A DNA stretch of 19,860 nucleotides from a virus (lineage: Duplodnaviria > Heunggongvirae > Uroviricota > Caudoviricetes), in the IMG/VR virus record IMGVR_UViG_2778261687_000001, positions 1 through 19,860 of that record. One strand, 5' to 3'. The notes beneath the pieces are model-generated. The model ran no database searches and was not told the origin of the DNA. It saw only the letters and a program-made list of their open reading frames with translations. Shown piece after piece: positions 14,933 through 15,405 of this stretch. Both the position numbers and the translations under genes were made by a program. Every line of letters starts with the position of its first letter. Position 1 is the first letter of the stretch.

Positions 14933-15212
14933 GTAAAACTGATGAGTCATAGCTTTATTATCAGCACTGGCGAATTTTCGTGAAGAACAGACCTGGCAGG
15001 TGGATTTGTTGTTCTTCATTCTGTAGACCTGACCGCCTACAGTTTCAGTGCTTTTTTTTGTAGTCATCCCTGCATGTTGCAGGGATGAGGTGATACCAGA
15101 ATGCGTCGTTGTCTGTTTCCGGGCCTACGATTTGCCAGTTTGCACAGCAGGCTGACGGCGCATTCTTATAACATCTATACAAGTAAACTCTGTTTCATCA
15201 TTACATTGCGTT

Positions 15213-15241
15213 AGCCCGCCTTATGTGTGGGCATTTTTTTT
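15213..15241 (+). terminator. Intrinsic terminator-like hairpin with T8 run
   Basis: GCCCGC/GTGGGC stem with one G-U pair, 7-nt loop, then TTTTTTTT. Confidence 0.45.
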
Positions 15242-15363
15242 ACCTATGCATATGGCTCGCTGCGGCGGGCCTTTTTCATATCCGCGCCACGCCTGGCGCA
15301 CATCACATCAGATAGCGCCACACAAAAGGTATCTGCGGGTGCCTTTGACGGGGTGTTTTTTTA

Positions 15364-15390
15364 CGGGCCGACAGAGGCCCTTTTTTATTT
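15364..15390 (+). terminator. Intrinsic terminator-like hairpin immediately upstream of the holin gene
   Basis: GGGCC-gacaga-GGCCC followed by TTTTTTATTT; the holin Shine-Dalgarno follows directly. Confidence 0.5.
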
Positions 15391-15405
15391 ACAGGAGAAA
15401 AACGT

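Follow-up and report, generated by a model that had tools for sequence, protein, structure and literature searches.

Predicted five-terminator stack and two conserved RNA structures between the tRNA-Gly and holin genes of an E. coli lambdoid prophage

The 3' trailers of some tRNA transcripts give rise to stable RNAs, as with the E. coli 3'ETS-leuZ sponge and the rtT RNA of the tyrT operon. Structured RNA is also found beyond terminators, as in phage lambda, where sib, the element of retroregulation, lies beyond tI; T7-type RNase III sites are likewise comparable to the structures described here. In the Sakai Stx2 phage the late promoter PR' is always active (constitutive) yet terminated during lysogeny, and dRNA-seq of this phage mapped a transcription start from which the phage tRNAs are driven independently of PR' (PMC7547250). 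Terminators that flank morons or lie within the late operon of lambdoid phages are presumed to be overridden by the antiterminator Q (PMC7547250; PMC8022706), and the phage L paper commented that the roles of the intra-late-operon terminators are not known.

The stretch of DNA that we analysed ("the window") is 19,860 nucleotides long (IMG/VR record IMGVR_UViG_2778261687_000001, positions 1 to 19,860) and comes from an E. coli lambdoid prophage. Pfam searches identified DUF968 (10016-11074), RusA (11075-11440) and a lambda-type antiterminator Q (PF06323; 11431-12102, + strand), followed by three cargo ORFs that include an N6/N4 DNA methyltransferase (13592-14638), and then by a holin (PF16931; 15406-15795) after which come a second holin and a GH108 endolysin. 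ARAGORN called a tRNA-Gly (UCC) at 14856-14928 on the + strand, to which the Rfam tRNA model gave 51.6 bits, and from this tRNA to the holin there is a non-coding gap of 477 nt (14929-15405); the holin's Shine-Dalgarno AGGAG and ATG lie at 15393-15408 (+ strand; sequence, Pfam PF16931). The gap is flanked by Q, a candidate pR' and a candidate tR' upstream, and by the two holins and the endolysin downstream. Both candidates came from a scan and the sequence: the late promoter pR' (TTGCAA-17-TATATT, 12110-12138, + strand) is just 3' of Q, and the first terminator tR', a hairpin with a U-tract, is at 12190-12215 (+ strand). The tR' hairpin is short, ~70 nt downstream of the candidate pR', and would yield a short 6S/StxS-like RNA. 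This arrangement after Q is the expected one, and we presume it to be the source of antiterminated polymerase, with read-through as the step that we infer. Directly 3' of tR' is a 237-aa ORF (12357-13070) with no Pfam match, preceded by a possible separate promoter (TTGACT at 12290), and this ORF may be a moron. Region 14640-15405 is 100% identical to E. coli strain RM11911 (NZ_CP044313, 355231-355996), and parts of it were matched in 432 of 5426 complete E. coli genomes. Further strong + strand terminator-like hairpins lie among small ORFs in the endolysin-terminase interval (16930-16951, 17727-17752 and 18536-18555), and terminators are present at several other module boundaries of the late operon.

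Upstream of tRNA-Gly, column-for-column alignment with relatives identified a promoter-like site on the + strand (14714-14741; -35 TTGATG, 16-nt spacer, -10 TAGTAT), which our promoter scan had missed because just 8 of 12 positions match the consensus; the aligned relatives have TTGAAA-16-TAATAT and TTGATA-16-TAGTAT. A constitutive promoter at this place, ~650 nt 5' of the holin gene, would demand tight termination. At 14790-14851 (+ strand) there is a degenerate remnant of a second tRNA, of Thr/Arg type, which aligns with intact tRNA-Thr and tRNA-Arg genes of relatives; it lacks 14 nt of its D region, was not called by ARAGORN at default settings, and is overlapped by hairpins at 14746-14808 and 14807-14850. 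The score of the window's tRNA-Gly is low relative to the ~65 bits seen in relatives, its acceptor-stem base has an A-C mismatch, and there are two extra bases ahead of the encoded CCA; therefore this tRNA may also be decaying. The phage tRNA-Gly of the main clade is ~97% identical to a tRNA-Gly gene found in 5421 of 5426 E. coli genomes.

An earlier note on this gap, made from its sequence, had named three perfect inverted repeats, all of which are real and within ~1 base of the positions it gave. The TGAAGAACA / TGTTCTTCA repeat (14981-14989 and 15010-15018, 9 nt) and the TCATCCCTGCA / TGCAGGGATGA repeat (15064-15074 and 15078-15088, 11 nt) are each 100% complementary, and the GCGCCA / TGGCGC repeat is at 15284-15289 and 15294-15299, having been placed one base too far left. 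The note was also right that the gap holds no convincing ORF: we found short, non-conserved ORFs only, and the RefSeq copies examined, identical or related, carry no annotated CDS there. Terminator-like hairpins are present as it claimed, but their number is five rather than two, three of them simple and found by scan and two compound and found by folding. We designated these T1 to T5 in order, and three further hairpins Ha, Hb and Hc. The consensus scan of the + strand of the gap found three simple terminators (15214-15232, 15254-15271 and 15365-15380) versus 0.5 +/- 0.8 in shuffled sequences, and MFE folding added the compound elements T1 and T4, in which U8 and U7, respectively, directly follow the closing stem. 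Taking an intrinsic terminator as a GC-containing stem-loop followed by a U-tract of at least ~5, T2, T3 and T5 have this form by scan and T1 and T4 by fold. Of the seven sites in the 19.9-kb window that look most strongly like terminators, three fall within 15214-15386. Relative to dinucleotide shuffles, fold z-scores were -4.7 for the Ha stretch, -3.6 for Hb, -3.0 for T3 plus Hc, -3.2 for T4, -4.0 for T5 and -2.2 for T1; for the T2 stretch, energy alone was not significant against such shuffles (z = -1.2).

All five terminator-like elements are on the + strand, in the same sense as Q, the tRNA and the lysis genes, and by sequence and scan the - strand has no U-run at any of the five and no terminators. 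Folding energies showed the same asymmetry. T1 folds at -35.9 kcal/mol on the + strand versus -22.1 on the - strand, with the + strand more stable in 38 of 40 variants; the Hb region folds at -38.3 versus -26.6 kcal/mol and the whole spacer at -163.7 versus -140.6 kcal/mol, the + strand being more stable in 18 of 18 variants in each case. The + strand thus folds better, and the structures depend on G-U pairing; their action is therefore that of RNA, made with the polarity of the late transcripts. We rejected minus-strand genes as an account of the gap, that strand having no terminators, much weaker folds and one marginal promoter-like match. A retron, intron or transposon RNA, to which the inverted repeats might point, was set aside too, the flanking genes being a DNA methyltransferase and holin/endolysin genes.

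T1 (14963-15059, + strand) is predicted by its MFE fold to be a four-way-junction terminator in which the closing stem AGCACUG/CAGUGCU is followed by U8. Its helices are P1 (14963-14969/15046-15052), P2 (14970-14973/14978-14981), P3 (14982-14990/15009-15017) and P4 (15021-15026/15037-15042), and the U8 tract is at 15052-15059. We collected 40 distinct variants downstream of phage tRNA-Gly and aligned 35 of them with MAFFT, and from these 35 RNAalifold predicted the same four-way junction. Supporting this structure, cells were paired in 97.0% of cases versus 29-52% with slid partners, compensatory double changes occurred in 8 of 21 pairs, and none of 500 shuffles matched the observed covariation score. 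The six-pair core of the closing stem (GCACUG/CAGUGC) is essentially invariant, with one mismatch at one pair in one of the 35 variants, and the three internal arms are freely variable. A T1 covariance model made from the same alignment gave one match in the window (14961-15063, 66.7 bits) and matched related PF16931-holin loci; it found no match in the EDL933, phiP27 and E2348/69 loci. T1 copies lie 21-32 nt past tRNA-Gly and are a near-constant neighbour of the phage tRNA cassette: across 1.5 Mb of loci, an exact tRNA-Gly pattern was upstream of 98 of 119 T1 motifs, and most of the others were behind a variant tRNA. With T1 downstream, tRNA-Gly would have its own terminator, as a moron does. 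T1 sometimes follows tRNA-Arg (UCU) or sits in a non-tRNA context, and some loci have two copies; in three IMG/VR loci (L040, L059 and L065) the copies are 700-800 nt apart, the first preceding the tRNA array and the second following it, so that T1 behaves like a boundary element that can be reused. A search of species representatives for a tRNA followed by T1 found it in E. coli, Shigella flexneri and E. ruysiae, and two more matches were to metagenome-assembled genomes, a gammaproteobacterium and a Friedmanniella (the latter probably by chance). The four-way shape of T1 (90 nt), with its invariant closing stem, is unexplained by termination alone; one possibility is that the internal arms serve only to bring the closing strands together.

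Beyond T1 there are two further hairpins. Ha is a perfect 11-bp hairpin with a 3-nt loop (15064-15088, + strand), formed by the second of the inverted repeats, and is confined to the subtype of the window, other subtypes having no Ha or a different insert there. Hb (15088-15176, + strand) is a long imperfect helix of ~27 bp in the window, with the base CAGAAUG/CAUUCU, and in the subtypes folded a homologous helix starts immediately 3' of the T1 U-tract. Among 24 main-clade variants Hb has 21 consensus pairs, with 97.2% paired versus 23-61% with slid partners, compensatory changes in 6 pairs, and an observed score that 0 of 500 shuffles reached; it has three 1x1 mismatches at regular spacing. 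The Hb of the window is a divergent member of this group that shares the CAGAAUG/CAUUCU base with its relatives, and relative to the nearest of these it shows a compensatory change from C-G to A-U. A 37-codon ORF (15102-15215, with a Shine-Dalgarno-like GAGGTG) overlaps the Hb stem and ends at the T2 hairpin; we rejected it as a gene, since it is truncated or altered in relatives, where substitutions keep the Hb RNA stem and not the peptide. The conservation of Hb directly after T1 is unexplained by termination alone.

A rival reading of the gap is a platform for processing and stabilizing the late transcript. Hb would then be a putative RNase III site at which cleavage splits the lysis mRNA from the tRNA cassette, and the ends so created would be shielded by the other hairpins. 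RNase III recognizes about two turns (~20 bp or more) of mostly continuous double-stranded RNA, a length that Hb attains with 21 conserved bp and ~27 bp in the window. The three regular 1x1 mismatches, the covariation and the position right after the T1 U-tract in the subtypes examined fit this reading, as does the position of T5 directly 5' of the ribosome-binding site, and a tRNA needs excision from any read-through transcript. However, the length and shape of Hb are compatible with RNase III recognition but not diagnostic of it, and a processing platform leaves five U-tracts unaccounted for, and we regard it as quite unlikely to be the main role of the gap. As a second function, a site of RNase III type at Hb on read-through transcripts, on the model of lambda sib/tI, is reasonable.

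The remaining terminators are on the holin side. T2 (15214-15241, + strand, by scan) is the hairpin GCCCGC/GUGGGC followed by U8; at its position one clade has GCCCGYC/GRCGGGC and the other ACCGCC/GGCGGU plus U8-9. T3 (15254-15276, + strand, by scan) is GGCUCGC/GCGGGCC followed by U5, was 99.3% paired over 21 variants with compensatory changes in 3 pairs, and follows tRNA-Arg in EDL933 and phiP27 (argO in phiP27) and tRNA-Gly directly in some phages. Covariation thus supports T3 along with T1 and Hb. Always adjoining T3 is Hc (15284-15299, + strand, by sequence and fold), the GCGCCA/UGGCGC hairpin, which was just 62% paired when the register was held constant, since in one clade the pairing of the hairpin is shifted. 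The single-stranded CA-rich linker between Hc and T4 varies in length, and in one IMG/VR locus (L035, ~1395-1440, at about window 15300-15320) there are 3-4 tandem ACACCAGAAA copies where the window has ACATCACATCAGATA. T4 (15314-15362, + strand) is a compound terminator with an outer helix (15314-15319/15352-15357), an inner helix (15325-15333/15338-15346) and a U7 tract (15356-15362, + strand), and T5 (15365-15386, + strand, by scan and fold) is the hairpin GGGCC/GGCCC followed by U6, its end being 6 nt from the holin Shine-Dalgarno. Over 31 variants T4 and T5 were jointly 98.9% paired versus 45-55% when slid; the changes are nearly all one-sided transitions that keep G-U pairs, so covariation neither proves nor contradicts these two.

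The earlier note had named a lack of conservation among close relatives, together with a lack of defined RNA ends, as what would speak against it; as an architecture, the region is in fact kept among relatives. We found 18 distinct tRNA-to-holin spacers of less than 620 nt, 16 of which are 463-518 nt long and span several sequence subtypes; in all 16 the T-runs are at offsets of ~120, 282-320, 323-357, 410-465 and 434-491. The subtypes themselves diverge strongly in sequence, especially in the T1-T3 interval. BLAST against the E. coli genomes gave a patchy picture of the gap: the first 322 nt are rare, and at least 80% of the gap was covered in only 15 genomes, while the 52 nt with T3 and Hc and the last ~90 nt with T4 and T5 each occur in more than 1000. 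Among 79 PF16931 holin loci from IMG/VR, T5 was present in 71, T4 in 65 and both in 63. T4/T5 lie below widely differing upstream contexts (Stx2e, an AraC-like gene, TerB/DUF3927). Directly 5' of the PF16931 holin, they follow stx2e in phiP27 and DUF3927 in an ETEC prophage, and they occupy this place in the LT-IIb phage too. T3, in turn, precedes TerB/DUF3927 in EDL933 and stx2e in phiP27, and the TerB/DUF3927 insertion point is exactly between Hc and T4. Neither T4 nor T5 was detected in several loci whose holin is directly adjoined by an LT-II-like or subtilase-like toxin gene, so these two are not indispensable. The gap is therefore the toxin/cargo insertion site of this phage group, here empty. 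We saw no remnants of deleted cargo in it, the only matches to cargo-bearing loci being T3/Hc and T4/T5. Different cargo occupies the tRNA-to-holin gap in five IMG/VR loci (L063, L087, L089, L041 and L026); as assigned from translated ORFs, with no profile searches, the cargo types are pertussis/LT-II-like ADP-ribosyltransferase toxins, a subtilase-like (SubAB-type) toxin, Stx2e and an AraC-like regulator.

A site this mosaic could be non-functional debris, i.e., recombination scars and decaying remnants, such as those of a third tRNA, carried along with the tRNA and holin modules. There is a decayed tRNA just upstream, the conservation of T4/T5 could reflect hitch-hiking with the holin gene, and T1 resembles a tRNA in its cloverleaf topology, its 7-bp closing stem and its location in a tRNA array. 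However, the arm and loop sizes of T1 do not fit a tRNA and the D-loop and T-loop motifs are absent; we rejected T1 as a decayed tRNA, since it had no Rfam tRNA match at E <= 10 and relaxed ARAGORN calls were inconsistent between variants. Decay would also not be expected to keep T1, T3 and Hb paired through compensatory changes across divergent variants, to replace T2 at the same position by a terminator of other sequence, or to leave folds that are strand-specific. We therefore consider debris very improbable.

The gap might instead release stable regulatory RNAs that target host or phage RNAs with the help of Hfq or ProQ, on the model of AgvB, AsxR, STnc100/PasD, PasA/C and StxS at the equivalent site of other lambdoid prophages. 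Candidates would be a tRNA trailer ending at T1 (3'ETS-type), an RNA ending at T2, and a unit made of Hc, the CA-rich linker and T4. Hfq-binding sRNAs are known to be concentrated at the Q-to-lysis cargo site (PMC4104026; Pas sRNA preprint; PMC7547250), and EDL933 has STnc100 and AgvB at the equivalent site; T1, T2 and T4 terminate in 7-8 U, compensatory changes maintain T1 and Hb, and the stretch between Hc and T4 is single-stranded and CA-rich, with the repeat expansion in one relative described above. Against this, only tRNA reached the gathering threshold in an Rfam search of the whole window, and AgvB (RF02702), AsxR (RF02703), STnc100 (RF02076) and Esr41 (RF02676) had no match even at E <= 10, whereas the same search did recover STnc100 and AgvB in EDL933. 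A suhB/mmgR-like match at 15207-15286 was dismissed, as it scored 23 bits versus a 41-bit threshold and reflects two adjacent terminators. BlastN searches (word size 7) with PasA, PasC, PasD1 and PasD2 of E2348/69 gave chance-level matches only (E >= 0.3). Neither T1 nor Hb corresponds to an Rfam family or to any of these four Pas sRNAs. Nor did a scan of the + strand of the gap for internal promoter-like sites find any. We also rejected a GcvB sponge acting through the CA-rich linker: its pairing energy of -21.5 kcal/mol (AgvB, -22.3) is unremarkable window-wide, and the best site is within the Hb stem. As for a 3'ETS-type sponge, the position of T1 fits; GcvB R1 alone was tried as a target, and seed pairing with it was not distinctive, being no better than in many other windows. 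Taken as the main role of the gap, regulatory RNA is in our view unlikely. Because the cargo site is a known sRNA hot spot, release of a stable Hfq-binding RNA is nevertheless a reasonable second function.

What probably accounts for most of the gap is that the predicted stack of five terminators insulates the holin and endolysin genes from constitutive upstream transcription, and that Q-modified polymerase reads through it. Of the three interpretations that the earlier note had offered, insulation of the upstream morons has the best support; tRNA processing, for which Hb is now a concrete candidate, and a regulatory RNA are less likely. The analysis shows what the structures are, which strand carries them, that they are conserved and that they are linked to particular modules; termination, read-through by Q and activity of the tRNA promoter we infer. 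In the lysogen, transcription lacking Q that starts from the 14714-14741 site or from other moron promoters would be stopped stepwise at T1, T2, T3, T4 and T5, and therefore holin and endolysin would not be made. Upon induction, Q would load onto RNA polymerase at pR' (about 12110-12138), and the modified polymerase would ignore tR' and all five terminators, with the result that the lysis genes are transcribed. T1 would be the tRNA cassette's own terminator, its three internal hairpins joining the closing stem to the U-tract; T4 and T5 would be part of the holin module, and T2, T3 and Hc would be module-boundary terminators acquired by recombination.

For the two structures that go beyond termination there is a further, tentative idea, drawn by analogy with lambda sib/tI and in our opinion doubtful: T1 and Hb may form an undescribed two-part phage RNA module that acts as a conditional processing switch, or else T1 may be a stable tRNA-shaped RNA. 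As a switch, T1 would end and protect the tRNA transcript in the lysogen; after Q has acted, Hb would form and be cleaved, which would uncouple the tRNA from the lysis mRNA and set both stability and timing for holin expression. In the alternative form, a stable T1 RNA shaped like a tRNA would be set free and have a function of its own.

The terminator stack would be a simple way to silence lethal lysis genes below constitutive moron promoters, and this reading would bear on the point left open in the phage L paper, the purpose of intra-late-operon terminators. Because relatives carry Stx2e, LT-II-like and subtilase-like toxins and TerB/DUF3927 in the gap, the elements that bound it would determine whether expression of the cargo and of the lysis genes occurs already in the lysogen or awaits induction. 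T1 and Hb, being conserved, backed by covariation and without an Rfam family, are concrete candidates for new phage RNA functions.

Relative to lambda tR' and the Stx-phage tR' that gives StxS, the elements of the gap share a GC-rich stem with a U-tract, an orientation co-directional with pR', and a location between Q and the lysis genes; they differ in that they are not adjacent to pR', that five are stacked within 440 nt, and that T1 and T4 are compound. AgvB/AsxR, STnc100/PasD and PasA/PasC occupy the same genomic niche as the gap and all end in intrinsic terminators, but AgvB, AsxR, PasA and PasC run opposite to late transcription, and all elements of the gap run with it. Lying between the last tRNA of the cassette and the U-tract, T1 would be the 3' trailer in the primary transcript of the tRNAs, so that 3'ETS-leuZ and rtT are its closest counterparts in position; unlike these, with which it has no sequence relation, T1 is a four-way junction. 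Hb is just beyond terminator T1 and so would exist on read-through transcripts only, as with lambda sib/tI; it differs in that it is a helix apart and does not extend the T1 stem, and its cleavage is putative. The main part of the feature is ordinary in kind, namely intrinsic terminators at moron boundaries, and it is the density of these terminators, together with T1 and Hb, that is unusual.
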